IMG/VR virus record: IMGVR_UViG_2571042390_000001 | Direction: 5' to 3' (one strand) | DNA: 64,000 bases | Origin: a virus | Lineage: Duplodnaviria > Heunggongvirae > Uroviricota > Caudoviricetes | Shown: positions 7,675-49,514 of the stretch, in pieces | Numbering within the stretch: position 1 is the stretch's first letter | Layout of the letters: every line of letters begins with the position of its first letter | The notes under the pieces: generated by a model | The model's database searches: none | Told to the model about the DNA's origin: nothing | The model's input: the letters and a program-made list of their open reading frames with translations, nothing else | Position numbers and translations under genes: made by a program

Positions 7675-7899
7675 ATTAATTTGCTGTTTCTAAAACGGAA
7701 TGTATGATCTGCATCATCGACTGAAGTCATCCATTGCTGAAATTTTTAGTTGATCTTCCATGTTTTCAGGCTTATATTCATGCCGTCGTAGCAAATTCTG
7801 CGACCGGGTTTGACAGCCTGAATGTTAGTGCGGACAACCGCAGATTTCCGATATTGCGGTATTTTTGTGTCCGTAAACCGCGTTACGCCCGAATTATGG

Positions 7900-8000
7900 T
7901 GGGGCGTGATGGGGAGGCTTCGGCCTGCTGGTTTCACTAACGCCAGTCTGTCAACCCTGTCACGTCCTGCCACCTGTTTGACAGCGGGTGGCAGGTTGTT
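7900..8000 (+). ncRNA. Candidate c4-like antisense regulatory RNA (immI type), copy 1
   Basis: Non-coding region before icd-like gene; hairpin about 7966-7995; segments about 7921-7926 and 7935-7941 complementary to RBS region about 8007-8019. Confidence 0.35.
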
Positions 8001-8024
8001 AAACCTGTTAGTGAGGCCGTAACT

Positions 8025-8249
8025 ATGGTTAATGCCAATCCTTGCTCACGTCCAGAATTCATCTGGCGTTTCCACTCCCTGCAAAAACGCTGCGATCACT
8101 TCGCAATTGCCGCAACCGAAAAAGAAGCCCGTTCTCTGATCCCTGATCAGCATGGTGTTCTTACTGGTCGTTTCTCTACTTCCCCACAACCAAACACTAA
8201 TCCCTGGTATCGCAATATTACCAATCCCGGCATTGCGGAGGCTCACTGA
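8025..8249 (+). CDS. Icd-like small protein (host cell-division inhibitor Icd-like family)
   Basis: EFIWRF motif; stop overlaps start of the Rha/Ant-like gene; paralog at 48299. Confidence 0.55.
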   Translation: MVNANPCSRPEFIWRFHSLQKRCDHFAIAATEKEARSLIPDQHGVLTGRFSTSPQPNTNPWYRNITNPGIAEAH

Positions 8250-8956
8250 TGGGTATCTGCATTCTCGAAAAACTATCAATGACCAGCATTGAGATTGCGG
8301 AGCTGGTGGGAAGCCAACACTCTGACGTTAAACGTAGTATTGAGCGTATGGTTGCTCGAAGCATTATCCGAAAACCGCCAATGGCTGTTTTCGAAAAAAT
8401 CAATAACTTAGGATTGCGTCGTGGCGTTGAGGCTTACGTCTTCGAAGGCGAGCAAGGCAAACGAGACAGCATCATTGTCGTCGCGCAGCTCTCTCCCGAA
8501 TTCACCGCCCGGCTGGTGGACCGCTGGCGCGAACTGGAAGAACAAGTACGCCAGCCGTTGACCGAAATAGAGATGATCGCTGCAATGGCTGCGAATGCAG
8601 TTCAGCAGCAAAAGCTGATTCATGCTGTTGAGTCAAAGGTTAGCCAGGTCGCTGAAACCGTCGAGCAAATAAAGAAAGGCAATATTCCGGAAGGCTACAT
8701 TGGCTACCGCCAGTTGGCGGCGAAATGCGGCCTGACTGAAGCCAAATGCCGAAACCTTGTCAACGCTTACCGGATTCCCACCGATACACATGAGTTTTTG
8801 ACTCCAGAGGGGGTATTGTCGCGTCGTTCCATCGTGGCCTTATCTCCCTTCATGAATGCTTTTAACCGGATGATGTCGGAGGCTGAACACCGAGGAAAAC
8901 GCTGGTATCACCCCAAAATGGGGCAATTCCAGGTGATCGGTTGGGGAGGTGAGTGA
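8249..8956 (+). CDS. Rha-family phage regulatory / antirepressor-like protein
   Basis: N-terminal TSIEIAELVGSQHSDVKRSIERMVA Rha-type signature; occupies the ant position of an immI-like module. Confidence 0.6.
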   Translation: MGICILEKLSMTSIEIAELVGSQHSDVKRSIERMVARSIIRKPPMAVFEKINNLGLRRGVEAYVFEGEQGKRDSIIVVAQLSPEFTARLVDRWRELEEQVRQPLTEIEMIAAMAANAVQQQKLIHAVESKVSQVAETVEQIKKGNIPEGYIGYRQLAAKCGLTEAKCRNLVNAYRIPTDTHEFLTPEGVLSRRSIVALSPFMNAFNRMMSEAEHRGKRWYHPKMGQFQVIGWGGE

Positions 8957-9153
8957 TGGACATCATGCAGGCGGTAAAAAAAATCAGGGAAGGACAGGCT
9001 GAAGTGTGCCGCCGTAAAGCATGGAGTGTTGGTGTATGGGCCTGGCCTGATAATTACTCTACTACCGGATGGTTTTGTATTAATGGACTCCAGATCCGGG
9101 AAGTTGATTTATCGACGGCTGATATAGTCGGTAATGATTGGATCGTGACTTGA
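8953..9153 (+). CDS. Small DUF2829 (Tad2-family)-like protein
   Basis: AVKKIREGQAEVCRRKAW and C-terminal ADIVGNDWIVT signature; 4-nt overlap with Rha gene; same domain is fused to Rha in 48514..49455. Confidence 0.5.
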   Translation: MMDIMQAVKKIREGQAEVCRRKAWSVGVWAWPDNYSTTGWFCINGLQIREVDLSTADIVGNDWIVT

Positions 9154-9162
9154 AGCGTGATG

Positions 9163-9186
9163 CCCCGGCCTGGCCGGGGCTTTTTT
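9163..9186 (+). terminator. Rho-independent terminator
   Basis: ccccggcc/ggccgggg stem followed by T6. Confidence 0.65.
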
Positions 9187-9671
9187 CATGCCTCATTAGT
9201 TGAGGTTGCTGCGTCTCCGACTGGTAACAGGGCGGTATTGCGTGGTTCGCCAGCAGGCCAGCGATAGCCAGACACTCTTGATGTTGGGAATGCGCGAATA
9301 TTAACCGCATCCCCCTGGTTCCCACCCAGGACAAGCAGATCGCCATTGGCGCGGCGTCCGACAACGAAGCCTACGTGCCCACCGCCTACGCGGGTAAATA
9401 CAACGATACATCCGTATGCCGGTGTATCTAATTTCTCGCCCCAATCCAGATAGGATTTTGCCGACTCAAATCTTGTTGAGCGAATGCCTACACGTTCCAG
9501 CATTGCACCGACAAATGCTGCGCACCACGGCGTTTCATCGTCTTTAATTCCGCCGCGCTTGATGTCGCGCCAGAACTGAACGATTTCAGGGTTGTGTTTA
9601 GCGCCTTTTATTTCAGTCAAGCCAATGTGCTTACGGGCTTCAATTAGCCAGCGAGGTTCAATGTTTGCCAT
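9186..9671 (-). CDS. NlpC/P60-like (TIGR02594-type) putative peptidoglycan hydrolase
   Basis: Candidate catalytic Cys (PWCAAFV) and His (GGHVGFVVG) motifs. Confidence 0.5.
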   Translation of the reverse strand: MANIEPRWLIEARKHIGLTEIKGAKHNPEIVQFWRDIKRGGIKDDETPWCAAFVGAMLERVGIRSTRFESAKSYLDWGEKLDTPAYGCIVVFTRVGGGHVGFVVGRRANGDLLVLGGNQGDAVNIRAFPTSRVSGYRWPAGEPRNTALLPVGDAATSTNEA

Positions 9672-9822: not shown

Positions 9823-12800
9823 TTGGACAAACTACTTCATTCAATCAGTGAAGCCTCCAGCTTAGGCGAACTGATTGAAATTGTTAGTCGGTTGCATAAA
9901 TTACGTGCTGTTGCGACCTTTGGCGTCAGGAAAGCCGATGGCGTCAGTATTCAGAAAACACGCCGGGCAGCAAACAATGCCGCAGTAAATCTTCTTAATT
10001 CCCTTCCGCCCGGCTTCGATGGGGCGAAATTAACTGACGAACAACGTCAGATTCTTGCTGGGTATACCGGTGAAGGCGGCCTGACAGATGGTGAGGGCAG
10101 CCAATACGAATACTACACGCCACAGTTTATGGCTGAAGGTATATGGGAGCTGTTTGCTGACTACGGTATTGATGGCGGTCACGTACTGGAACCATCAGCT
10201 GGCACGGGTATTTTCCAGGAGACAAAACGGCAGGGAATGATAATGACCAGCGCCGAGCTGTCTCCGATCTCCGGTCGAATCAACCAGCTGTTGCACCCGG
10301 AAGACGATGTGAACATTGGGGCGTTTGAGGCTCTGGCGGCGAAAGACGCAATGTATGACCACGCTGTTGGTAACGTACCGTTTGGCGAAGGCCGTTCCGG
10401 CGTTGCAGGGCTTGATCCGGCATATGCAAACGAGAAGAACGTTGGCAATTACTTTGTGCTGCGCACGATCGACAAGGTTAAACCTGGTGGGCTTATCGTA
10501 TTGGTGGTGCCGAATGGCATGACTGATGGTACGAAATACAAAAAATTGCGCGATAAAGTCAGCCGTAAAGCGGAATTTTTGGGCGCGCATCGTATGCCTT
10601 CCGGTACGTTCAGTGAATCAGGTACAGATACCGTGGTGGACGTATGGGTATTGCGTAAACACCCGGAAGCCTTCCTGGAGATGATCCCCGATACGGATGA
10701 TTCGACGCTCAAATCGGCAAACGTCCTTTGGGTTACCTTCCTCAAAGGGAAATGGTTTACAACCGAAGGGAAGCGATTTGTTTACGGCGACATGGAACGT
10801 ACCAGCTTCCGCAATACCCTAGTGGTGAAAAAAGACGGTCGTGTATCCAATGAGTCGATGAAAACCGCGCTATCTCGTCGCTTTGATAGTCGCATCAATT
10901 GGGATTTGCTCGGCGTAACTACTCAGGCATGGCAGGGCGCGAAAGTGGGCGATAAACGCCTTGTAGGCGGTATCTGGCATGAGTTTGATGGTCTGAAATG
11001 GGTTCAGGACACGACAACCAAATCCTCCGCGCTTGATGTAAGTCGATATGGTGTTTCGACGTTTGGCGATCTGCAGATCGCGTTCCAGTCAACAAACGGG
11101 ATTCTGGCTTTGTCATGGGACCAGATATCGGCGATCGCGTCCGACTATCCATCGGTTGTCAGTGATGAAGTGGCAGCAATGATTCGCTTTGCTGGCAAGC
11201 AGCGAGAAAAAGACAGGGAGCGCGTTATGCGCGGTGCACTGATAGGTCAGTTGATCAACAAGGCACTTGATTTGCGTAACCTGGGGGTGAACGTTGATGA
11301 CAAACTGGCAGATGCATCCCGCTTGGCGGCAGCAGAAGTTGCGAAGTATGGACCACCGCACGCGATTAAGCTGAATGGGCTTGCTGAAGCTGGCGCTAAA
11401 AACTGGATGACGTTCACTGGCAATGTGAAACAGGATGGTTCCACTTCTGACCTTCTGGCAGGGCGACTTGATGTAACGGATGGTGCTGCCGGTATTGACT
11501 TTACGCGTCCTGAACAAGTGATAGCACATCTTTTTAGTGATGTAGCCCTTAATCCTATAACGCTGGGCGACTTTCGTGAGGCGTTTGCTGGTGAACTGCC
11601 AGAGGACGACGACGCGGTCCTTGAATACCTGGCGAAATTTGATGATATCGCTATTGATGGGTATGGCTGTCTGCTGCCGATGGACCGCGCCACCAGCGGC
11701 GATGTTGCAACCAAAACAGCACTGCTGGTGGGCTGGCGTGATGCGTCAACAGGTGAGCAGAAAGCGAACTTTGAGCGTCAGTTGGCGAAAATCGAAGAGA
11801 AACGCATTTTCACGCCACTAAATAAAGTCACCGTTAATCTGAATGCCCGCTGGCTGGATCGCCGCTTGATAAAAGAGTTCCTGGCAGAGCAGGGCTATGA
11901 CGAGTTTAAGTACACTGAACCTGATCTGAAGGTCGTCGATGGCATTCTGGTATCTCCGGACGATTACGAAGGTAAGGACGGGGTATTTACCGGCTATCAG
12001 CTACGAACCGTAAACGGCAAAAACGGGAATGAGTTCAAGAAGGCCAACAATAAAGACGGCTTCCTGAACCAGTTAGAAAACTACCTGAACGGTGTTAAAC
12101 CGCGTGGGCAGAACGCTAACGAGTACCTGGATAAAATTGCTCAACTGGAAGTTAGCTTTAACGACTGGTTACGCACCCACCCGCAGGCGGATCAGATAGC
12201 CCGTGACTATAACGACGCATTCAATGGTTTCATTCCGTTCACACATTCTGACGCACCGCTTGGCCTGGAAGGGATTAGTGGAAAGCGCATTCCTCTGACT
12301 TATCAGAATGAAGAAGTTCGGCGCTTGTCAGAAGATGGGCGTGGCATCATGGGATTTGGTACCGGGCTGGGTAAAACCACGACCGCGCTTGCGCTTGAGG
12401 CGTATAACTTCGAAACAGGTCGCACTAAACGCACGTGTATTGTTGTTCCGAAGGCGGTTTATCAGAACTGGTATCACGAGGCACAGAGTTTCTACAGTGC
12501 TGATGCCTTCGCCAATATGATGTTTATCGGTTTGGATGAAGTTCGTGATGACAGCGGAAATATTCTGACCGCGCCGGTGCTTGATGAAAATGGCGAACCA
12601 CGCCTCGACAGTAACGGGCAGCCTCTTACCAGAAATGTTGTGAAAGAGTCCTCCAGCGCCGTTATCGTTCAGCGTATGAACATGATCCCGTCGTCAAATT
12701 GGCGAACGGTCATCATGACAAAAGAACAATTCGCGTCTATCCCGCTACGAGAAAAAACCATCGAGGAGAACTCACAGCAAGCTGTCTTTAATGCTGTGGA

Positions 12801-15800
12801 AATGGGGCGTCTTGACCTGGCGTCCGGTAAACACCGTGATGCGCAGAAGAAGAACAAGATTAAGGATCAGGCCGCGAATACCGGTACAACGAAGAAGCAG
12901 AATATCCCTTACTTTGAGGATATGAACTTCGATAGCGTGATTGCCGACGAGGGGCATAACTACCGCAACTCCTTTAATGCCGGGCGTGAAGCGGGACAAC
13001 TGGCATATTTGCCTAACCCGGCAGTATCCAAGATGGCCCGCGACATGGCTGTAAAAGCTGCGTACATGATGAAACGCAACAACGGGCGTGGTGTAGTCAT
13101 GCTGACGGCAACACCGCTGGTGAACAGTCCGATTGATGCCTTCAACATGCTGTCTACTGTCATTCCGCAGGAAGAGTGGATGCGTATGGGCATCATTACG
13201 CCTGATGATTTCGTTCGTGTGTTTGGCAAAACAGCCACAGTTCAGGTCCAGAAAATTTCCGGGGAAGTGGAAGAGAAGCAGGGGCTGGTGGGCTTCCAGA
13301 ACCTTGACGGCCTGCGTGGTATTTTCCATCGTTGGACCACTCTGAAGACTGCTGCAGATGTCGGAGCGACGGTTAAAATTCCCGACATCATCGAGAACAC
13401 CTTGCAGATCCCGATGACAGGGGAGCAGGAGACTGCTTATGAAGAGCTTCGTAAGCGTGCTCAGGAGTTAAGTCGCAATGATGAGCTGACAGTCGATGAA
13501 AACGGGCATATCACTAACGACAAACCGGATGATTTCATCTTCTCCATCATCCGTGACATGGATAAGGTTGCTATAGACCCGGATCTGTATGCCAGTGCGA
13601 TTACATTCCAGTTCCCCGTTGAGCTTGCAGACCAGGTAAAAGCTATTGCTGATGCCTTGCCAAAAGTAGCTGGCGGTAAAGTGGCAGATGATGTTGATGA
13701 GGCCGAGGAAGACGGCGCTGGCGGGCTGGTCAGTACGCGTACCAGCAAGGTAGTGAAGACCGCTTTTAGTGAACATCCGACGCATGTTGAAATACGTGCC
13801 AGCATTGAACTGGAAGCTGAAATACTGAAGGCCATTGCGGCTGCCGGCATTGATATGCAGCAGGTGTCGCACCCCATCCCGCCGAAGTATGCCGCGCTGA
13901 TCGAAAATCTTCGTGAAGGTCTGAAGAACGGTAAGCAGATCGTCTTTATTGATGAAAAAGCCCAGCACCAGAAGCTGCGCCGTATTATCGCCAGTGCACT
14001 GCAAATGCCGGAGCAGGAGATTGGCATTATCAATGCGACGACAGTTAGCCAGGCTGGTGGCATCAAGCTGAAGAAGGTGAATAAGCCGACCGAACCTACT
14101 CCAAACAAAAACGGTGAATACAAAGAAGGGGCATGGGAAACCTACTACAGCAAACTTGCCCAATATGAGGATTATCTCTCCGCTAAAAATGATGCTGGCC
14201 TTGAGGGCATGGAAGGTATTGCCGCCGACTATAACGAAGGTCGCACGCGCATCATAATCTGTAACAAGAAGGCTGAAGTAGGTATTAACCTGCACATCGG
14301 GACAACCGATATCCACCACCTGACACTACCCTGGACACCAGCCAGTATCGACCAACGAAATGGGCGCGGTGCGCGCGTAGGTTCACCGCAAGAAAAGGTC
14401 AATGTTCACTACTATTGTGGCAAAGGCACATTCGACGACTTCCGTCTGGATACGCTGAAACGTAAGAAAGACTGGATCAAGATGGTGATGACATCCGACA
14501 TGTCAGAGATCGCCAATGGTGATGCGGATGATGCTGATGAACGCGCCATTATGCTGGCGGCAAACCCGGAAGAACGCCGCGCAATCATGGCTCGCCAGGC
14601 GCAAGAGCGTGAAGAACGTCTGAAACTGAAAGCACAGCGCGAGGCCAACAATGCTCTCGATATCTACCTGAAAGCGGCAAACGCCGCCGGAAAAGATATC
14701 GGCATGATGGAGACAGAACTGAAAAGCGCGATGGAACAGATAGAGTATTACCAGCGCAATCTTGACGACCTGATAAAAGCGGGTACGAACAGGAATGGGC
14801 AAAAATACGCGCTTGAGCAGTTGAGTAGCTACAGAAAACGTGCGCGGGTGCTGCGGTTTGCGATCACCAGGGCAAAAGACGCGGATACCATAATGAAACG
14901 CTCTCGTGGTGATGTGGAGCGCGCTATTAAGTCTGGTGTGCTGGATATCAGTATCGATGTTATTCAGAACCCACAGGAATATATGCGCACTGACAAGAAT
15001 ATCCTGTTGCATAAAGGTAGTTATTACCGTGCAGTCATTGATGATCGCGAAACAACAGCGATTGTCCGGGTGGAAAAAATTGACGGTGAAAAAGCACAAT
15101 ACCTCTGCCGTATCGCCTGGCTGGATAGAGCAAGTCGTTACGCTCGAGCACCGGGGTCAATCGTTACATTGCCGTTTGACTCTGTGATTGAAGCGGTAAC
15201 TTTTGAAGAGGGGGTAGCTGAATCGCGCGCAACGGCTGCGCGTGGTGTTCAGTGCCACCAGCTATCAACAATACTTACTCGCGATCAGTTCTATGATGCT
15301 ATTCGCAATGGGGTAATGAATGTTATTGCTGGTAAACCTGGTAATGCATGGGGCGGTGGGTCAGCTATTAAATACTGGGCATATCGCACAGATGATGGTC
15401 AGATCGCGCTGTCATCGGCCTATGATGGCGTGATAGGCCAAAAAATCGGGCGAGCATCGGATATAGCACCTGAGCGATGGATATATCCTGATGGCAACGA
15501 CGAGGCGCTGAAGCGTGAAGTGGCAAAAATACAAGCCAGTGATAACCCGCTGAATATCGTGGACGGCGAGGGATTCCTCCAGGCATTGTATGGGTATGAT
15601 TACACCCAGGGAATGCAGGCATGGGGCGCACAGGCAACGATGGATGATGTTGCCCATGAGTTCGAAAACTGGATGGCTGGGCGTGGTCTGTCAGGTCGTT
15701 CGCTTAATAAAGTCACTTCTGAAGATATTCTTAGCTTGTTCCGCAAACCGTCCGGAGAAGGTCTGGAATCATTCTGGAGGACCGTGCTGGCATACCGTTT

Positions 15801-16659
15801 ATTCCAGGGCAGGATGAAAGCCTTTAGCAATATCGATGATATTGAACGGATGTTTAATCAGGTCAAGATCGCGAAAATTAAGGCGAAGATCGAAAAAACA
15901 CGTTCTGCGCTGGTGGCCTGGCGCGATGCATTGTTTGAGCAATATAAATCACTCAGTGATGCAGATGGATGGGCGGCATTGGAACAGCTGGCGAATAATG
16001 GGGTAGATGGAGCGAAACTCGCCATTGTTCAGGCTGATAACCCCCTGGAATCACCGGCAGCACAGTGGATTAAGGTGGGGGCTGTCATCAATGCATTTGA
16101 TGAAAAACACATTAGTAAGGACGATTTTGCTGATGCTGTTTCTGTTAATCGCCTGGTAGAAATGGCTACCCGCCGCGCCCGTGAGTTGAAAGACGGCGAC
16201 TATGTGAATGAGTTGCCGGATACGCTCAAATCGGCAACGTGGCAGGACTATGTATCGCTGAAAAACGGCGGGGCCACTGAATCAGAGATCGCGGAAAGGC
16301 TTGAGCAGGCTGAAAGCAAAAGAGAAGAGCAGGCGGCAGTGGCTGAAGCCAGAGCTGATGAAGCGGCGAATGATGACTATATCATTGTGGTTAATGATAA
16401 GCCGATTCGCGCTAAGGCGCGTGTTCGCGGGCGCTGGTGGAGCGTCAGCGAGGACGTTGGCGCGGTTTATCTCATTGCCGACCAACCAGGTTCCTCGACA
16501 ATACGGAACGCCAAAGACGCGATTAAGAAGATTGGCGGACGTTTCTGGAATTTTGAAGCAAACCCGGTTGCTGATGTGAACTTTGACCGTCCTGCATGGA
16601 TGGTATCTACGCGTTACTCGGTAGATGAACTGCGTAAAATAATCGCCGATGCGGCCTAA
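9823..16659 (+). CDS. darB: DarB-like antirestriction protein: N6-adenine methyltransferase fused to SF2 helicase (2278 aa)
   Basis: LEPSAGTG (SAM motif I), NVPFG (motif IV), Walker A GTGLGKT, DEGH box ADEGHNYRN, motif VI QRNGRGAR; TTG start with GAGGGGG RBS. Confidence 0.8.
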   Translation: MDKLLHSISEASSLGELIEIVSRLHKLRAVATFGVRKADGVSIQKTRRAANNAAVNLLNSLPPGFDGAKLTDEQRQILAGYTGEGGLTDGEGSQYEYYTPQFMAEGIWELFADYGIDGGHVLEPSAGTGIFQETKRQGMIMTSAELSPISGRINQLLHPEDDVNIGAFEALAAKDAMYDHAVGNVPFGEGRSGVAGLDPAYANEKNVGNYFVLRTIDKVKPGGLIVLVVPNGMTDGTKYKKLRDKVSRKAEFLGAHRMPSGTFSESGTDTVVDVWVLRKHPEAFLEMIPDTDDSTLKSANVLWVTFLKGKWFTTEGKRFVYGDMERTSFRNTLVVKKDGRVSNESMKTALSRRFDSRINWDLLGVTTQAWQGAKVGDKRLVGGIWHEFDGLKWVQDTTTKSSALDVSRYGVSTFGDLQIAFQSTNGILALSWDQISAIASDYPSVVSDEVAAMIRFAGKQREKDRERVMRGALIGQLINKALDLRNLGVNVDDKLADASRLAAAEVAKYGPPHAIKLNGLAEAGAKNWMTFTGNVKQDGSTSDLLAGRLDVTDGAAGIDFTRPEQVIAHLFSDVALNPITLGDFREAFAGELPEDDDAVLEYLAKFDDIAIDGYGCLLPMDRATSGDVATKTALLVGWRDASTGEQKANFERQLAKIEEKRIFTPLNKVTVNLNARWLDRRLIKEFLAEQGYDEFKYTEPDLKVVDGILVSPDDYEGKDGVFTGYQLRTVNGKNGNEFKKANNKDGFLNQLENYLNGVKPRGQNANEYLDKIAQLEVSFNDWLRTHPQADQIARDYNDAFNGFIPFTHSDAPLGLEGISGKRIPLTYQNEEVRRLSEDGRGIMGFGTGLGKTTTALALEAYNFETGRTKRTCIVVPKAVYQNWYHEAQSFYSADAFANMMFIGLDEVRDDSGNILTAPVLDENGEPRLDSNGQPLTRNVVKESSSAVIVQRMNMIPSSNWRTVIMTKEQFASIPLREKTIEENSQQAVFNAVEMGRLDLASGKHRDAQKKNKIKDQAANTGTTKKQNIPYFEDMNFDSVIADEGHNYRNSFNAGREAGQLAYLPNPAVSKMARDMAVKAAYMMKRNNGRGVVMLTATPLVNSPIDAFNMLSTVIPQEEWMRMGIITPDDFVRVFGKTATVQVQKISGEVEEKQGLVGFQNLDGLRGIFHRWTTLKTAADVGATVKIPDIIENTLQIPMTGEQETAYEELRKRAQELSRNDELTVDENGHITNDKPDDFIFSIIRDMDKVAIDPDLYASAITFQFPVELADQVKAIADALPKVAGGKVADDVDEAEEDGAGGLVSTRTSKVVKTAFSEHPTHVEIRASIELEAEILKAIAAAGIDMQQVSHPIPPKYAALIENLREGLKNGKQIVFIDEKAQHQKLRRIIASALQMPEQEIGIINATTVSQAGGIKLKKVNKPTEPTPNKNGEYKEGAWETYYSKLAQYEDYLSAKNDAGLEGMEGIAADYNEGRTRIIICNKKAEVGINLHIGTTDIHHLTLPWTPASIDQRNGRGARVGSPQEKVNVHYYCGKGTFDDFRLDTLKRKKDWIKMVMTSDMSEIANGDADDADERAIMLAANPEERRAIMARQAQEREERLKLKAQREANNALDIYLKAANAAGKDIGMMETELKSAMEQIEYYQRNLDDLIKAGTNRNGQKYALEQLSSYRKRARVLRFAITRAKDADTIMKRSRGDVERAIKSGVLDISIDVIQNPQEYMRTDKNILLHKGSYYRAVIDDRETTAIVRVEKIDGEKAQYLCRIAWLDRASRYARAPGSIVTLPFDSVIEAVTFEEGVAESRATAARGVQCHQLSTILTRDQFYDAIRNGVMNVIAGKPGNAWGGGSAIKYWAYRTDDGQIALSSAYDGVIGQKIGRASDIAPERWIYPDGNDEALKREVAKIQASDNPLNIVDGEGFLQALYGYDYTQGMQAWGAQATMDDVAHEFENWMAGRGLSGRSLNKVTSEDILSLFRKPSGEGLESFWRTVLAYRLFQGRMKAFSNIDDIERMFNQVKIAKIKAKIEKTRSALVAWRDALFEQYKSLSDADGWAALEQLANNGVDGAKLAIVQADNPLESPAAQWIKVGAVINAFDEKHISKDDFADAVSVNRLVEMATRRARELKDGDYVNELPDTLKSATWQDYVSLKNGGATESEIAERLEQAESKREEQAAVAEARADEAANDDYIIVVNDKPIRAKARVRGRWWSVSEDVGAVYLIADQPGSSTIRNAKDAIKKIGGRFWNFEANPVADVNFDRPAWMVSTRYSVDELRKIIADAA

Positions 16660-21092: not shown

Positions 21093-21167
21093 GATGGTGT
21101 AGCTCAGCGGTAGAGCAGTTGGCTGTTAACCAACTGGTCGGTGGTTCGAATCCACCCACCATCGCCA
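21093..21167 (+). tRNA. tRNA-Asn (anticodon GTT)
   Basis: Cloverleaf: acceptor GATGGTG/CACCATC, T-arm GGTGG-TTCGAAT-CCACC, anticodon loop CTGTTAA, 3' CCA. Confidence 0.8.
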
Positions 21168-21172
21168 ATTTA

Positions 21173-21259
21173 GGGGAGTTAGTCCGTAGGGGTAGCGGGG
21201 TAGACTGTAAATCTACTGTCATTGCGACTCGGGTGGTTCGACTCCATCACTCCCCACCA
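21173..21259 (+). tRNA. tRNA-Tyr (anticodon GTA), long variable arm
   Basis: Acceptor GGGGAGT/ACTCCCC, anticodon loop CTGTAAA, type II variable arm, 3' CCA. Confidence 0.7.
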
Positions 21260-21263
21260 AATT

Positions 21264-21339
21264 GCCGGTTTAGCTCAGTTGGTAGAGCAGTCGCTTTGTA
21301 AGCGAATGGTCAGCGGTTCGATCCCGTTAACCGGCACCA
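21264..21339 (+). tRNA. tRNA-Thr (anticodon TGT)
   Basis: Acceptor GCCGGTT/AACCGGC, D-arm TAGCTCAGTTGGTAGAGC, anticodon loop TTTGTAA, 3' CCA. Confidence 0.8.
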
Positions 21340-21408
21340 ACACAACAGGTAAGAGCATTTGTAGAGTTCGACTCTCTACCGTGGGCTTTTTCCCGCGATG
21401 CGAGCCAT

Positions 21409-21439
21409 AAATGCTCTTACCGTTGTGATGAAGTGCAGC
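21409..21439. repeat. tRNA-array-associated repeat, copy R1
   Basis: aaatgctcttaccgttgtgatgaagtgc; 3' strand of a long hairpin that follows tRNA-Thr. Confidence 0.4.
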
Positions 21440-21650
21440 TCTTTGAAGCAACCAGAAGATAAGCATCTGGCTTCACAACATAAACCGCAGGAACGACCAA
21501 TAAACGGTAGTCCGTATGGAGAACACCCCGTTGAGGAAGAGGTCTGGCCGGAACCGTAACCGGCACTACAACGTTGAGAACACTGGCGTAACGGGGTCAT
21601 ATCCCAATCTACGAATAAATGTTGCGTTGCAGCGTGACAACCAGTGTTCT

Positions 21651-21674
21651 CAACATTGTGGTGAATGCGCAGGC
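21651..21674. repeat. tRNA-array-associated repeat, copy R2
   Basis: caacattgtggtgaatgcgcaggc; preceded by inverted repeat gttgagaacactgg/ccagtgttctcaac. Confidence 0.35.
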
Positions 21675-21793
21675 TGATGCGCGAAAGACATTGCAGCTAT
21701 TGCGGAAAAGAGCTGTTCGGCGGGGCAATTAAACGCCCGTGAGAGTCTGAAATAACCGCAAGCCGGAGATCAGCACCGGTCGCCACAATAACG

Positions 21794-21880
21794 GGAGAGT
21801 AGGGAGCATGGTGCTCAAGCGGTCTTGAAAACCGTCCCATTGCGCAAGCGATGATGGTTCGATTCCATTACTCTCCGCCA
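21794..21880 (+). tRNA. tRNA-Ser (anticodon TGA), long variable arm
   Basis: Acceptor GGAGAGT/ACTCTCC, anticodon loop CTTGAAA, type II variable arm, T-loop TTCGATT, 3' CCA; position 8 atypical. Confidence 0.6.
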
Positions 21881-21974
21881 GTGCAACATTAAGGGTATTT
21901 GGCTAATTAAGCGAATGCCGGAAGCAGAACCGGATCACCAAATGCGTACAGGCGTCATCGCCGCCCAGTCAGCC

Positions 21975-22004
21975 AAATGCTCTTACCATTGCGGTGAATG
22001 CGGC
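21975..22004. repeat. tRNA-array-associated repeat, copy R3
   Basis: aaatgctcttaccattgcggtgaatgcggc; follows tRNA-Ser. Confidence 0.4.
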
Positions 22005-22171
22005 TAAGCGCACGCGGAACAGTTAAAACAGTAAAGGTGGTCTTTTTACTGGCGTAACGAGAATCCATAAGTGATCCGGCGTTAATTGTTAACTGGTTAA
22101 CGTCACCGGGAGGCGCCCGGCACCGCAACCTAACAGCAATGGCGTTTTGTCTTAAAAGGTGGCTGCAAGTG

Positions 22172-22300
22172 ATGGATTTTTGGGCGTTTGCCGATAAAAA
22201 CCCGGAGTGGACATTATTGTTTCTGCTGGTGGTTGCATACGGGGTAGAGCAAGCGGCAAAAGCCTTACGCGGTTCTGGCAAAAAGCGTAAGCGTAATTAA
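22172..22300 (+). CDS. Small hydrophobic ORF (42 aa) inside the tRNA cluster
   Basis: AGGTGG RBS 8 nt upstream of ATG; predicted TM segment WTLLFLLVVAYGV and basic tail; below track size cutoff. Confidence 0.25.
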   Translation: MDFWAFADKNPEWTLLFLLVVAYGVEQAAKALRGSGKKRKRN

Positions 22301-22309
22301 CAGTAATCT

Positions 22310-22385
22310 GGCCCTTTAGCTCAGTGGTTAGAGCGGGCGACTCATAATCGCACGGTCACCGGTTCAAGTCCGGTAGGGGCCACCA
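22310..22385 (+). tRNA. tRNA-Ile2-like (anticodon CAT; may read AUA after lysidine modification, or be tRNA-Met)
   Basis: Near-identical in outline to E. coli ileX-type tRNA: GGCCC(T)TTAGCTCAGTGGTTAGAGC ... CTCATAA ... GGTTCAAGTCC ... CCA. Confidence 0.75.
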
Positions 22386-30081: not shown

Positions 30082-30554
30082 AAACTTATTACCCATCTCT
30101 GAATTGTTACCCGTCTTCCTATCCAGAATTATCCGGGAAGCTGTTAGCTCTATTAGCTAAAGCACCTACGGAATGGTTTAAGCCAGTCGTTATCAATCCA
30201 CACTTCCTGGATTACGGATCTGTTCGCACTCGTAACGAACTCAAAAACCTACTGGCGCATGGATTCATTCGACACCGTTCCGGTAAAGGCTATCAGTTAG
30301 CGATTGCGCCAGAAGAGGCCGTGCGGCTATTCGCATATCGTGACAGCCAGACAAAAGCTCGGGTAATAGCTCAAATACTTCATAACGGCAGCACCTATGC
30401 CCGCCAGTTTGGCGGCGACACGTCGCAGTTCTTGCGGGCGGTGCGATCGCTGGAGGAGCAAGGAATTATTGAAAGTTCCTGTCTTCCTGTTCCTACCGTT
30501 CCACATATCAAACGTCGGGTTTACACCTTCACGCAGAGAGCTAAAAAACAATGA
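30078..30554 (+). CDS. Hypothetical protein (158 aa)
   Basis: GTG start overlapping upstream stop. Confidence 0.4.
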   Translation: MKTYYPSLNCYPSSYPELSGKLLALLAKAPTEWFKPVVINPHFLDYGSVRTRNELKNLLAHGFIRHRSGKGYQLAIAPEEAVRLFAYRDSQTKARVIAQILHNGSTYARQFGGDTSQFLRAVRSLEEQGIIESSCLPVPTVPHIKRRVYTFTQRAKKQ

Positions 30555-31045
30555 TTTACGTAAAAGTGAAACGCCTACATCCGGCAGCAAAACTTCCAGC
30601 TTATGCCACCTCCGGATCGGCGGCGATGGATTTTGAGGCTGTTGAAATAAAACCATGCGTCGATAGCAATGGTGCAATTTCCTCAAGCTGGTGGGTGTAT
30701 ACCGGACTGGCTATGGAGATCCCGCCCGGCTGGTGTCTGAAACTCTATCCGCGATCCGGATTGGGCTGCAAAAAACATACTCGCCTGGCTAACTGCGTAG
30801 GAATTATCGACTCCGATTATCGCGGCGAAATCATGGCAAAACTGATTACTGATCCCGGCGGGGAAGGCGTTTGTCTCAAGCCTGGAATGGCGGTCATGCA
30901 AGGCATTTTTGAGCGTGTTGAACCGGTATCGCTGGTAGAAGTTGATGAACTCGATGAAACAGAGCGAGGTGCTGGTGGCTTTGGTAGCACATCGGAAGAC
31001 CGCATTGAAATCAAGCGTACACCGCTTCAGTACGAAAAGTTTTAA
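30551..31045 (+). CDS. dut: dUTP diphosphatase (dUTPase)
   Basis: Conserved dUTPase motifs AYATSGSAAMD, PRSGL, GIIDSDYRGE, RGAGGFGSTS. Confidence 0.85.
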   Translation: MIYVKVKRLHPAAKLPAYATSGSAAMDFEAVEIKPCVDSNGAISSSWWVYTGLAMEIPPGWCLKLYPRSGLGCKKHTRLANCVGIIDSDYRGEIMAKLITDPGGEGVCLKPGMAVMQGIFERVEPVSLVEVDELDETERGAGGFGSTSEDRIEIKRTPLQYEKF

Positions 31046-31059
31046 GTAGAGGAAAGATT

Positions 31060-31722
31060 ATGGCCAGCACTTTTCAGGTGTTCCCCAAATACAAAAGCCA
31101 CAGCATCATTCGGGCATCGAAAATCAAAGATATTGTTATTGTCGGCGAAGCTTATGCGCCCATTTTTGGCAGTATCGAAGTCGTTGAGCCAAAAGGAATG
31201 ACGCTTCGTGTTGATGGTGTGTTCTTGGAAAAATTCCGACCGCAAATAGGAGGATATCTCGTCACTGCTGAAAATGGCTATCTGGTCTATGTGCCAGAGA
31301 AAGCATTTGAAAAATGCTATAGCCGGGTTAACGACGCCTCCGAAAATGGGGTATCGCTCAGCATTGAAGGTCACAATGGGGTGACATTCATTACAGCCAG
31401 GGACGTAACTATTTCTGCTGGCGGTATCGCTACTCTACAAGAAGAAATCGACCTTGAAGCAGCCGACTTTTCTGACGCGCTGATGTGGCTGAAGGATGGC
31501 AAGAAAGTTGCCCGACGTGGGTGGAACGGCGAAAACCAATTCTGCTGGCTGGTTCCCGAAGGACAGTACCCGGCACGAATGGAAGCCATTAAGGGATATT
31601 TCCCCGGCGATCTCGTTCCGTATGGTGCTTATTTCGCCTTAAAAAATGCACAAGGTGTAGTTGTTCCGTGGGTTCCTTCTGTAGGCGACTTACTGGCATG
31701 TGACTGGTTTGTGGTGGAGTGA
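31060..31722 (+). CDS. Protein with C-terminal DUF2829 (Tad2-family) domain (220 aa)
   Basis: ALMWLKDGKKVARRGWNGENQF ... VPWVPSVGDLLACDWFVVE, a close match to the DUF2829 signature. Confidence 0.6.
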   Translation: MASTFQVFPKYKSHSIIRASKIKDIVIVGEAYAPIFGSIEVVEPKGMTLRVDGVFLEKFRPQIGGYLVTAENGYLVYVPEKAFEKCYSRVNDASENGVSLSIEGHNGVTFITARDVTISAGGIATLQEEIDLEAADFSDALMWLKDGKKVARRGWNGENQFCWLVPEGQYPARMEAIKGYFPGDLVPYGAYFALKNAQGVVVPWVPSVGDLLACDWFVVE

Positions 31723-47497: not shown

Positions 47498-48091
47498 TTT
47501 TAAGTTGAATTGAAAAACTCTCCGATGTACATTCACTACCGATTGGCACACCGGTCAACTTTTTGAGACAAACTGTTTAGTTTTTCGTATTATTGCCTCC
47601 GCCATACCTATGGCGGTGCAATATAGGTGGCTGAAAAGCCCCCGTTGACTCACGGTGTTCCAGCCTTTATTGCGCCGCCACCAGACCGTGGAACAGTCGA
47701 TGGCGGCTCCGAAAGCAAGGAGTCACAACACTATGAACAACTACAGTCTTTTCCCATCACTCGTCTTCCACCACTCACGCGATAATCTGCATTCTTTGCT
47801 CGCGCCGGGGGTGTCAAAATGACTGTTCGCTACCTCAACTTTCAAATCAAGAACATTACTGGCGGTTGCTATGACTGGTTTGTCACTCTCGGAAAAGAAG
47901 TGATCACCGGGAAGCTGGATGAAGTGAAAGCTAAAGCAATGGCCTACGCCTGCAAGCAAGTCAGGAAGAAATCCGCCAAAGCATAAAATACTGACTGTTG
48001 CGCCCTGGCATTATCGTGGGGTATATTTCTACGGCACCTTAGAAAAACGGGTGCCGGGATTGGAACCCCGGATAATGTCAAAGGCGACACA

Positions 48092-48113
48092 GACGCCGAA
48101 CGCGTCTTTTTTT
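48092..48113 (+). terminator. Rho-independent terminator
   Basis: gacgc/gcgtc stem followed by T7. Confidence 0.5.
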
Positions 48114-48149: not shown

Positions 48150-48260
48150 CTCAGAGATCAATGGTAGTGCTGGCTGGGCTGCCGAAAGGCAGGCCGGTTC
48201 CCTTTGACGCCGGTAGTTCCAACCCAGTCAGTGCTACCGCCATTGAGATTGGAACCTCAC
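48150..48260 (+). ncRNA. Candidate c4-like antisense regulatory RNA, copy 2
   Basis: Segments at about 48187-48191 and 48200-48206 complementary to RBS region of icd-like gene 2 (about 48280-48294). Confidence 0.35.
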
Positions 48261-48298
48261 GCGGTAGCTCCTTAACTTAGTCAAAGGAGGCTGCCAAT

Positions 48299-48514
48299 AT
48301 GGCTACTATCCCTACCCCAACTCATTCTGAATTTATCTGGCGTTTCTATTCCTGCCAAAAACACCTGTATATCTGCGTCATGGCTGCTACCGAAGCAGAG
48401 GCGCGCTCATACCTTCCCGAAGAACCCTGCATTTTTGCTGCTCGCTTCACTCTTGATGCGATGGAGATCCTCAATTACTGGAATCTGCCGATGAACTGCG
48501 TGGAGGTGCACTGA
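48299..48514 (+). CDS. Icd-like small protein (paralog of 8025..8249)
   Basis: SEFIWRFYSCQKH motif; stop overlaps start of downstream gene. Confidence 0.55.
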   Translation: MATIPTPTHSEFIWRFYSCQKHLYICVMAATEAEARSYLPEEPCIFAARFTLDAMEILNYWNLPMNCVEVH

Positions 48515-49455
48515 TGAATCTGTCCATCTCTCAAAAAGCGACAATGACCAGTATTGAGATCGCGGAACTGGTGGGAAGTCGTCACTCTGATGTTAAACGC
48601 AGCATCGAAAGACTTGTTGCTAAAGGAGTTATCCAACATACGCCATTGGCTACAGTTGAGAATAATCAATCACTTAGCCCTAATAAATACACAAAAGCCT
48701 ATTTCTTCGAAGGCGAACAAGGCAAGCGCGATAGTATTGTCGTCGTCGCGCAGCTCTCTCCCGAATTTACCGCCCGGCTGGTGGACCGCTGGCGCGAACT
48801 GGAGAATGCCCGGGTACAGTTAAAATCAAAAGCCGAAATCCTGGCTGAAATGGCGCAAATGCATCTTGAGCATGAACGCCGGATCAACGCCGTAAATGCC
48901 CAGGTAGCCGAGGTATCGGCACAAGTGTCCAGGGTCGCTGAAACCGTTGAGCAAATCAAGAAAGGCAATATGCCGGAAGGCTACATTGGCTACCGCCAGC
49001 TGGCGGCGAAATGTGGCCTGACTGAAGCCAAATGCCGTAACCTTGTCAACGCTTACCGGATTCCCACCGATACACATGAGTTTTTGACCCCCGATGGCTT
49101 GCTTGCGCGACGCTCCATTGTGGCCCTTGCCCCCTTCCGGAAAGCCTTTAAGCAGGTGATGTCGGAGGCAGAACCACGCAATAAACGCTGGTATCATCCA
49201 AAGATGGGGATGTTTCAGGCAATCCACCATCCTGTGCCTGAAAGCCCAAAGGATAATCTGTCACTACATACCGCCAGAGAGAAGATCAGGACTGGATACG
49301 CAACAGTGTGTCGTCGTTCTTCCTGGCCTGAAGGTATATGGGTGTGGCCCGAAGGTGGATCACGAAAGCACTGGCGCACCATCCGTGACGGGAAAATCCA
49401 TGCTATTGATTTAGCTCCAGAGGATGTTATTGCTATGGACTGGATTGTTAGTTAA
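48514..49455 (+). CDS. Rha/antirepressor-like protein fused to C-terminal DUF2829 (Tad2-family)-like domain
   Basis: N-terminal TSIEIAELVGSRHSDVKRSIERLVA; C-terminal VCRRSSW ... EDVIAMDWIVS aligns with separate ORF 8953..9153. Confidence 0.6.
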   Translation: MNLSISQKATMTSIEIAELVGSRHSDVKRSIERLVAKGVIQHTPLATVENNQSLSPNKYTKAYFFEGEQGKRDSIVVVAQLSPEFTARLVDRWRELENARVQLKSKAEILAEMAQMHLEHERRINAVNAQVAEVSAQVSRVAETVEQIKKGNMPEGYIGYRQLAAKCGLTEAKCRNLVNAYRIPTDTHEFLTPDGLLARRSIVALAPFRKAFKQVMSEAEPRNKRWYHPKMGMFQAIHHPVPESPKDNLSLHTAREKIRTGYATVCRRSSWPEGIWVWPEGGSRKHWRTIRDGKIHAIDLAPEDVIAMDWIVS

Positions 49456-49514
49456 ATGCTGCATCCCCGGCGACGCCGGGGATTTAACTGCCAAATAATC
49501 GGATTATCCGCACG

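Follow-up and report, generated by a model that had tools for sequence, protein, structure and literature searches.

The Tad2 proteins, which contain a DUF2829 domain, represent the most widespread family of phage sponges for immune signals. In Tad2 from phage SPO1, glycocyclic ADP-ribose (gcADPR) is reported to be contacted by W25 and W73 through van der Waals interactions and by N26 and D79 through polar interactions, with further contacts from T78, I63, and T65 and with D67, H71, and S76 serving as water ligands. HgmTad2 mutants carrying W21A/N22A or S90A/T92A/D93A lost gcADPR binding, and the gcADPR site has been reported to be conserved in ~99% of Tad2 homologs, with the other ~1% predicted to be non-functional. 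The Tad2 tetramer is held together by helix α1, its pockets lie at the interfaces between protomers, and helix α2, found in the β2-β3 insertion of SPO1 Tad2, forms the dimer interface. Ligands differ between homologs, which bind gcADPR, histidine-ADP-ribose (His-ADPR), or cyclic dinucleotides (CDNs); in HgmTad2 the CDNs are bound in the β2-β5 insertion, and the CDN pocket insertion of the HgmTad2/SptTad2 type is 35-41 residues long. In phages P1 and P7, the characterised payload of the immI operon gated by the antisense RNA C4 is an antirepressor. Here we analyzed a 64,000-nucleotide stretch of viral DNA (Caudoviricetes; IMG/VR record IMGVR_UViG_2571042390_000001; hereafter the window) in which a short domain with a predicted Tad2 fold closes two such C4-gated operons, as a separate open reading frame (ORF) of 65 residues in module 1 and as the C-terminus of a 313-residue Rha-family protein in module 2. 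The reading that we prefer, with a probability of roughly 40%, is that this domain has been recruited from gcADPR sequestration to serve as an effector or co-effector of the C4-controlled anti-immunity (lysis-lysogeny) pathway.

Phage D6 is a P1-related plasmid prophage, and the 2.1 kb around the 65-residue ORF are 95% identical to it and 100% identical to the E. coli plasmid pB2C_96; the window is a D6-like, P1-related phage-plasmid. Two c4/icd regions per D6-like element were already known (PMC6799933). Module 1 comprises the C4 RNA, icd, Rha (8249-8956), the coupled 65-residue ORF (8956-9153), and a terminator, while module 2 comprises isrK and C4, icd, and the 313-residue Rha protein with the domain at its C-terminus (48514-49455), such that no coding element follows the domain copy in either of these P1-type immI operons. 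An earlier note on this DNA, written from the letters and their ORFs, had placed a Rha/Ant-like gene at 8249..8956 (235 residues), a small ORF at 8953..9153 (66 residues), and a fused protein at 48514..49455 (313 residues), and had regarded the two modules as antisense-gated and as a split/fused pair. These observations are borne out: the ORFs lie at those coordinates, both Rha bodies pass the PF09669 gathering threshold of 29.9 bits (30.6 in module 1 and 32.7 in module 2) and match phrog_63 ('anti-repressor Ant'), Rfam C4 RNAs at 7892-7977 and 48157-48244 precede the icd-Rha operons that the two copies end, and the small ORF aligns with residues 249-313 of the 313-residue protein without gaps from end to end (40% identity, E = 3e-18). 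Read from a GTG start at 8953, the small ORF encodes 66 residues and overlaps Rha by 4 nt; read from the ATG at 8956, as annotated in D6 and pB2C_96, it encodes 65 residues with a 1-nt stop/start overlap (TGATG) and GGAGGTGAG just upstream, a junction with the classic layout of translational coupling. The Rha bodies of the two modules are 67% identical (E = 2e-116) as far as residue 237, and an 11-residue proline-rich linker (HHPVPESPKDN) joins body to domain in the fused copy. The features of the two modules, and one gene outside them that is decisive for their interpretation, are as follows.

7772-7824 (+): a1/b1 decoy target sites of C4, module 1; Rfam RF03163 (c4-a1b1), 55.2 bits (gathering score 46.7).
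7892-7977 (+): C4 antisense RNA, module 1; Rfam RF01695, 68.8 bits; loops CTGTCAA and TCACTAAC identical to those of P1 C4.
7978-8014 (+): C4 target sites a2 (7978-7984) and b2 (8007-8014), module 1; from a complementarity scan; b2 lies 11 nt upstream of the icd ATG.
8025-8249 (+): icd-like leader gene, module 1, 74 residues; ORF annotated in D6 and pB2C_96 as an Icd-like inhibitor of cell division; DNA 93% identical to the c4-icd region of P1.
8249-8956 (+): Rha-family protein, module 1, 235 residues; Pfam PF09669, 30.6 bits (cutoff 29.9); phrog_63 'anti-repressor Ant', E = 1e-46; occupies the P1 ant slot.
8956-9153 (+): stand-alone short Tad2-fold (DUF2829-like) protein, 65 residues (D6 orf17); TGATG coupling to Rha, with GGAGGTGAG as Shine-Dalgarno sequence.
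9162-9186 (+): intrinsic terminator ending module 1; stem of eight G-C pairs followed by TTTTTT.
48034-48112 (+): isrK-family RNA element upstream of the module 2 C4; Rfam RF01394, 61.3 bits; a1/b1-like repeats at 48058 and 48077.
48157-48244 (+): C4 antisense RNA, module 2; Rfam RF01695, 77.1 bits; loops GTTCCAA and CCTTTGAC.
48249-48287 (+): C4 target sites a2 (48249-48255) and b2 (48280-48287), module 2; from the complementarity scan; b2 overlaps the icd Shine-Dalgarno sequence.
48299-48514 (+): icd-like leader gene, module 2, 71 residues; ORF; D6 orf83, annotated as Icd-like.
48514-49455 (+): Rha-family protein fused to the Tad2-fold domain, 313 residues (D6 orf82); Rha body 1-237, linker 238-248; PF09669, 32.7 bits; phrog_63 matched to its last column.
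49258-49452 (+): C-terminal short Tad2-fold domain of the fused protein, residues 249-313; 40% identity to the 65-residue ORF.
49465-49481 (+): G+C-rich hairpin without a U tract, directly after the module 2 stop codon; read from the sequence as a possible terminator; no call in the terminator scan.
31060-31722 (+): canonical Tad2-like protein, 220 residues, with DUF2829 at residues 136-219, outside the modules; PF11195, 80.2 bits, E = 1.6e-22; keeps GWNG and PWVPSxxD.

Assignment of the domain to the DUF2829/Tad2 family, as the earlier note had proposed, holds at the level of fold and superfamily and does not hold at the level of Pfam membership. The 65-residue ORF scored 15.1 bits against PF11195 (E = 0.034; cutoff 25), in an alignment spanning model positions 1-72 of 73, the fused C-terminal domain gave no match to this model, and an NCBIfam scan returned no match. 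The motifs on which the proposal had relied (a basic N-terminal helix, a W, and a C-terminal DW-I-V) are present and align to the RxGW and D..A.DW motifs of Tad2. For this comparison SPO1 Tad2 (gp34.65) was extracted from the SPO1 genome, and its numbering agrees with the published contact residues. R20, W23, D56, D61, and W62 of the domain correspond to R22, W25, D79, D84, and W85 of SPO1 Tad2 and are invariant in 8/8 aligned sequences, which include validated Tad2, bridge proteins, and both window copies. Alignment with SPO1 Tad2 by hhalign was full length (E = 1.9e-4), and the 23 C-terminal residues of SPO1 Tad2 are matched at 57% identity in the fused copy (E = 1e-3).

Sequence searches of the PDB with single-sequence and two-sequence profiles gave no Tad2 match, and a five-sequence profile found HgmTad2 at an E value of 0.12 only. 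As these searches were insufficient, we turned to structure prediction. The AlphaFold model of the 65-residue ORF, with a predicted local distance difference test score (pLDDT) of 88.8, has the topology α1-β1-β2-β3-β4-α-β5, which is the published order for Tad2, and the model thus predicts an N-terminal helix, a five-stranded antiparallel sheet, and a short helix ahead of the last strand. When the model was compared with the PDB using Foldseek, a structural comparison that the earlier note had suggested, the best 18 matches were all Tad2, with template-modelling (TM) scores of 0.71-0.76, and the following match had a TM score of 0.41. The best matches in BFVD were DUF2829 proteins, some of just 65-71 residues. 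The full-length model of the fused protein had a pLDDT of 57 and was left out of the fold search; the fused copy is assigned the Tad2 fold because of its 40% identity to the modelled copy and its direct similarity to SPO1 Tad2.

Relatives of the domain are few. An exhaustive profile search with both window copies against 1.8 billion representative proteins returned only eight proteins, P0005 (E = 1.6e-10) and P0009 (E = 5.8e-4) among them. P0009, a bridge protein, scores 37.4 bits against PF11195, above the threshold (P0005 scores 23.9 bits), matches both phrog_7385, the family of D6 orf17, and phrog_1048, the family of SPO1 Tad2, and retrieves D6 orf17 by tblastn (E = 6e-4). A word-indexed homolog search returned near-identical relatives only, and the domain falls in a cluster of 165 members with an intact ORF; truncated variants (P0002, P0003, and P0008) occur occasionally. 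No genuine domain match was found in ~100,000 bacterial and archaeal genomes (one per species), and tblastn against 50,697 phage records located the domain in D6 only; the clade thus appears to be tiny. Ant from phiP27, considered as a relative, was rejected as it matches the C-terminal motif of Rha only. Taken together, four independent lines establish membership of the DUF2829/Tad2 superfamily, and the 65-residue ORF and the last 65 residues of the 313-residue protein are diverged paralogues, both representing a short form of the DUF2829/Tad2 fold without the insertion.

The residues with which Tad2 is known to bind its ligand were next mapped onto the two copies. At the positions equivalent to SPO1 W25, N26, W73, D79, S76, and T78, the split copy (copy 1) has W, S, V, D, S, and A, and the fused copy (copy 2) has W, P, I, D, A, and E. 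Two of the four principal contacts are therefore replaced in both copies (N26 by S or P and W73 by V or I), as is T78 (by A or E), and the residue equivalent to SPO1 G27 is deleted in both; neither copy has the full set of these six gcADPR contacts. The substituted pocket positions are variable within the clade, with position 73 being aromatic (Y/F) in P0005, P0006, and P0009. The β2-β3 connection is ~6 residues long, the β2-β3 insertion with the dimer-interface helix α2 is absent, as is the CDN-binding β2-β5 insertion, and the elements that form the pocket (the β1-β2 loop, the β3-β4 hairpin, and the helix before β5) are all predicted in the model.

A canonical Tad2-like gene, overlooked in the earlier note, lies elsewhere in the window. 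A hidden Markov model built from SPO1 Tad2 and ModTad2 and searched against all window ORFs gave a strong match at 31009-31719 (E = 3.7e-19), corresponding to the gene at 31060-31722, which has an intact GWNG and PWVPSxxD site and the β2-β3 insertion. Its 220-residue product carries a region of ~135 residues ahead of DUF2829, aligns with the profile of the short domains by hhalign (E = 1.6e-3), and has homologs in 159 phage records, including the P1-like SJ46 (81.5% identity). It resembles the short domains in belonging to the same superfamily and in having DUF2829 as a C-terminal domain, but differs in that it is not behind C4; it directly follows an ORF at 30551-31045 that is dUTPase-like, a candidate by appearance. 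According to a 2025 preprint, 93% of D6-like and 56% of P1-like phage-plasmids have 'Tad2 AcrIIA7'; the gene behind this report is very probably the canonical one, as the short domains do not reach family thresholds and P1 lacks them. The plasmid thus carries three domains of the superfamily, with a canonical site in just one.

These data bear on the proposal of the earlier note that, by sequestering gcADPR, the domain would counter Thoeris from the very start of infection. Superfamily membership and early, antisense-gated expression agree with it. However, two of the four principal contacts are lost, the equivalents of which abolish binding when mutated in HgmTad2, the Pfam scores are below threshold, and the plasmid already has, at 31060-31722, a copy whose site is intact. 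With the insertion also absent, the proposal is unsupported as stated; on sequence grounds it is weakened, not refuted, and we consider it highly improbable. As half of the signal-binding residues are lost and a normal Tad2 is found elsewhere on the plasmid, the function of the domain is probably other than that of canonical Tad2.

A sponge with altered specificity is a possible explanation, if a doubtful one, for the same observations. In such a scheme the domain oligomerises and sequesters a nucleotide-derived immune signal other than that of canonical Tad2, for instance another TIR product or an ADP-ribose derivative. The Tad2 fold, the invariant equivalents of W25 and D79, the aromatic residue at position 73 in three relatives, and the presence of every pocket-forming element in the model are consistent with this, as is the range of ligands already bound by Tad2 homologs. 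Against it, N26 and W73 are replaced in both copies, the pocket positions vary with no new consensus in the clade, the α2 dimer-interface insertion is missing, and one enterobacterial plasmid would have to carry three Tad2-type domains. How the domain is expressed, and what accompanies it, bears further on this alternative and on recruitment to anti-immunity alike.

The complementarity scan recovered the annotated P1 a2/b2 sites exactly and identified a2/b2 equivalents in both window modules, with b2 at the icd ribosome-binding site. Both modules thus have the C4, a1/b1, and a2/b2 elements of a P1-type immI operon upstream of icd and the payload. The module 2 direct repeats GATTGGAACC and GTCAAAGG (48058 and 48077) recur at 48247 and 48280. 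In this module the isrK-family RNA replaces the c4-a1b1 element and has a terminator-like hairpin at its end (48091-48107), an arrangement that presumably resembles the isrK region of Salmonella Gifsy-1. The C4 loops of module 1 are the same as those of P1 and those of module 2 are different; module 1 should therefore share the P1 immI specificity, and the two loop sets suggest two anti-immunity specificities on one plasmid. The expected order in such an operon is promoter, a1/b1 sites, C4, a2/b2 sites, icd, Rha, domain, and terminator or hairpin. As the domain is the last coding element, its synthesis is gated by the C4 RNA: it should be off in an established plasmid prophage and would be expressed in a burst on entry into a naive cell or when C4 control is bypassed.

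The most distant relatives of the domain, P0005 (96 residues, from a Raoultella plasmid contig, locus L007) and P0006 (68 residues, locus L008), are found in a simpler setting. At both loci (L007, 3752-4320; L008, 3746-4210) an a1/b1 element and a C4 RNA lie directly upstream of the domain, without icd and without Rha. In the complementarity scan, the b' loop of C4 (CTTGAGT in L007 and TTTCTTGAGTG in L008) pairs 9-23 nt upstream of the domain ATG, in the ribosome-binding region. The L007 domain is followed by a terminator-like hairpin after its stop codon; a 65-residue NikA-like ORF follows the L008 domain. That these loci belong to an unrelated backbone, as no neighbouring protein matches the window, was considered and rejected: both are Raoultella-type D6 relatives with a 77% identical major capsid region that lies outside the window, and the cassette is an insertion flanked by homologs of orf53 and orf55, a site that is empty in D6. 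P0005 has an N-terminal extension that can be aligned with the linker region of the fused protein, and the minimal cassette thus seems to have descended from a fused module by loss of icd and Rha. The domain is the sole protein common to all four C4-gated architectures. Its occurrence alone behind C4 with a paired b' loop in related plasmids argues that the domain would work without Rha, as an autonomous C4-gated payload. The minimal cassette, an autonomous, moron-like unit from promoter to terminator, would also suit a sponge of altered specificity. Two diverged, co-maintained paralogues would be expected for different ligands, and published discussion holds that sponges need early expression; C4 gating would then provide an early burst, while silence in the prophage would keep host immunity intact, a view of the gate that we regard as just as doubtful as the altered specificity itself. 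The recurrent physical link of the domain to a DNA-binding regulator speaks against this alternative.

Returning to the D6-like modules, the split/fused contrast is stable in nature. All copy-1-type loci in IMG/VR were split with an intact ORF (16/16). Among 19 copy-2-type loci from the same source, 12 were fused and intact (308-313 residues), 5 had a frameshift in Rha, and 2 were shortened by a contig end or a truncated ORF. In the frameshifted lineage (L040-L044; for example L041, 2256-3198), Rha is cut to a 212-residue ORF followed by an ORF of 118-120 residues that ends in an intact domain; this lineage may represent a second independent path to the split state, or a pseudogene. In PLSDB, 210 places were found in 109 D6-like plasmid records, nearly all of which have both copies. 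The fused domain is under strong purifying selection, with a ratio of non-synonymous to synonymous polymorphism (pN/pS) of 0.1-0.2 at a pS of 0.3-0.4.

Recruitment of the domain to the anti-immunity pathway is our preferred reading because the C4 payload in P1 and P7 is an antirepressor, because Rha, in the ant slot, is repeatedly found coupled or fused to the domain, and because the sponge site is degraded while a canonical Tad2 is already present. We also count in its favour that nearly every D6-like plasmid keeps both copies and that the fused domain is under purifying selection. The domain would be an oligomeric binding module whose conserved W23/D56 face binds a partner, either a protein or a ligand. 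It would work jointly with Rha in modules 1 and 2, through translational coupling or fusion, and by itself in the minimal cassettes. A stronger form of this proposal, which we think unlikely, makes the domain the actual effector of the C4-gated modules, either as a small antirepressor that binds a C1-type repressor or as a switch on Rha that senses a ligand and so links a nucleotide signal, perhaps one of host immunity, to the lysis-lysogeny decision.

Several observations weigh against a role in anti-immunity. Every DUF2829 protein assayed to date is a signal sponge, the equivalents of W25, D79, D84, and W85 are invariant in the clade, and part of the pocket is retained, with D67 and H71 kept in copy 2 and S76 in copy 1. 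Neither P1 Ant1 (hhalign E = 0.29, probability 0.2%) nor P1 Coi (hhalign E = 0.41) could be accepted as a homolog of the domain. SPO1 Tad2 itself matches the C-terminal end of much longer PHROG profiles of 172-262 positions (phrog_1048, phrog_872, and phrog_30130), so C-terminal DUF2829 fusions seem to be common in phages; as DUF2829 is often C-terminal in longer phage proteins, including the 220-residue one described above, the Rha fusion may carry no functional meaning. Similarly, a sponge that is silent in the prophage is also biologically sensible, and C4 gating therefore discriminates weakly. Finally, the split copy has a pN/pS of 0.4-0.9, beside values of 0-0.18 for icd and 0.08-0.26 for rha, a ratio that derives from 3-5 synonymous and 7-10 non-synonymous changes, counts too few to separate diversifying from relaxed selection, such that purifying selection is not demonstrated for this copy. 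In comparisons of the split copy with L022, L023, and L025, repeated changes occur at residues 34 (Y to S/C) and 45 (L to Y/C), which lie in the β2-β3 and β3-β4 loops.

The near-neutral pN/pS of copy 1 would also agree with the domain being a passive appendage that itself does nothing, whether a tail through which Rha oligomerises or is stabilised or a remnant in decay; the Tad2 tetramer is held by helix α1, and truncated variants of the domain exist (P0002, P0003, and P0008). We judge this to be improbable, as two diverged lineages without Rha have kept the domain by itself after C4, together with a matched b2 site, as it survives where Rha is frameshifted, and as its ORF is unbroken in each of the 16 split loci and in the 165-member cluster, while the fused copy has a pN/pS of only 0.1-0.2.

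In the surroundings of module 1, a CHAP/TIGR02594 peptidoglycan hydrolase gene (9186-9671, - strand) is convergent with the operon, and beyond it lies a gene for a 2278-residue protein (9823-16659, + strand) annotated in D6 as similar to P1 darB, of the DEAD/DEAH-box helicase family; we take DarB to be an anti-restriction methyltransferase-helicase. A cluster of four tRNA genes is present at 21093-22382 (Rfam RF00005), as reported for D6-like plasmids.

If the domain is a sponge, a new ligand specificity would be delivered by an RNA-timed burst, and if it is a regulator, a sponge fold would have been turned into a regulator of lysis-lysogeny. The clade is a natural outlier of the Tad2 family, with half of the site changed and the domain nonetheless kept, and of the antisense-gated anti-immunity operons of temperate phages, the one that houses it is the best understood. 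Nature provides four constructs (fused, split, with Rha frameshifted, and alone behind C4), with the canonical Tad2 as an internal control. What is new here is the occurrence of the domain alone behind C4 in D6-like relatives and the pairing of C4 at the ribosome-binding region of the domain. These genes currently carry the labels 'hypothetical' or 'Rha family', and the canonical copy is probably the only one counted when phage-plasmids are screened for anti-defence genes. D6 orf17, which is the 65-residue ORF (100% identity; phrog_7385), is annotated as 'hypothetical protein', and D6 orf82, the fused protein (~92% identity over the last 101 residues), as 'anti-repressor Ant' or 'Rha family transcriptional regulator'; no link of either to DUF2829/Tad2 was found in the annotations examined or the literature searched, a search that did not extend to the D6 genome paper (Gilcrease and Casjens 2018).

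Compared with the described DUF2829/Tad2 proteins (SPO1 gp34.65, ModTad2, HgmTad2, which is AcrIIA7, and SptTad2), the domain has the same fold, order of elements, and RxGW and D..A.DW motifs, and like them it is a small phage protein that is sometimes the C-terminal domain of a longer one. It differs in being 65 residues long, without the β2-β3 insertion or helix α2, in scoring below the Pfam threshold, and in its position in a C4-gated immI operon, where it is coupled or fused to Rha. Coi from P1, a 69-residue C1 inactivator, is a functional analogue only, in that it too is a small protein that could antagonise a C1-type repressor, but it has no detectable similarity to the domain and differs in locus and regulation. 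A further parallel is the immI operon of P1 and P7 (c4-icd-ant1/ant2), which has the same RNA gate, the same icd leader, and the same payload position. P1 Ant is without a Tad2-like domain; the payload here is a Rha-family protein together with a Tad2-fold domain rather than Ant1/Ant2, and there are two such modules in D6-like plasmids, each with its own C4 specificity.

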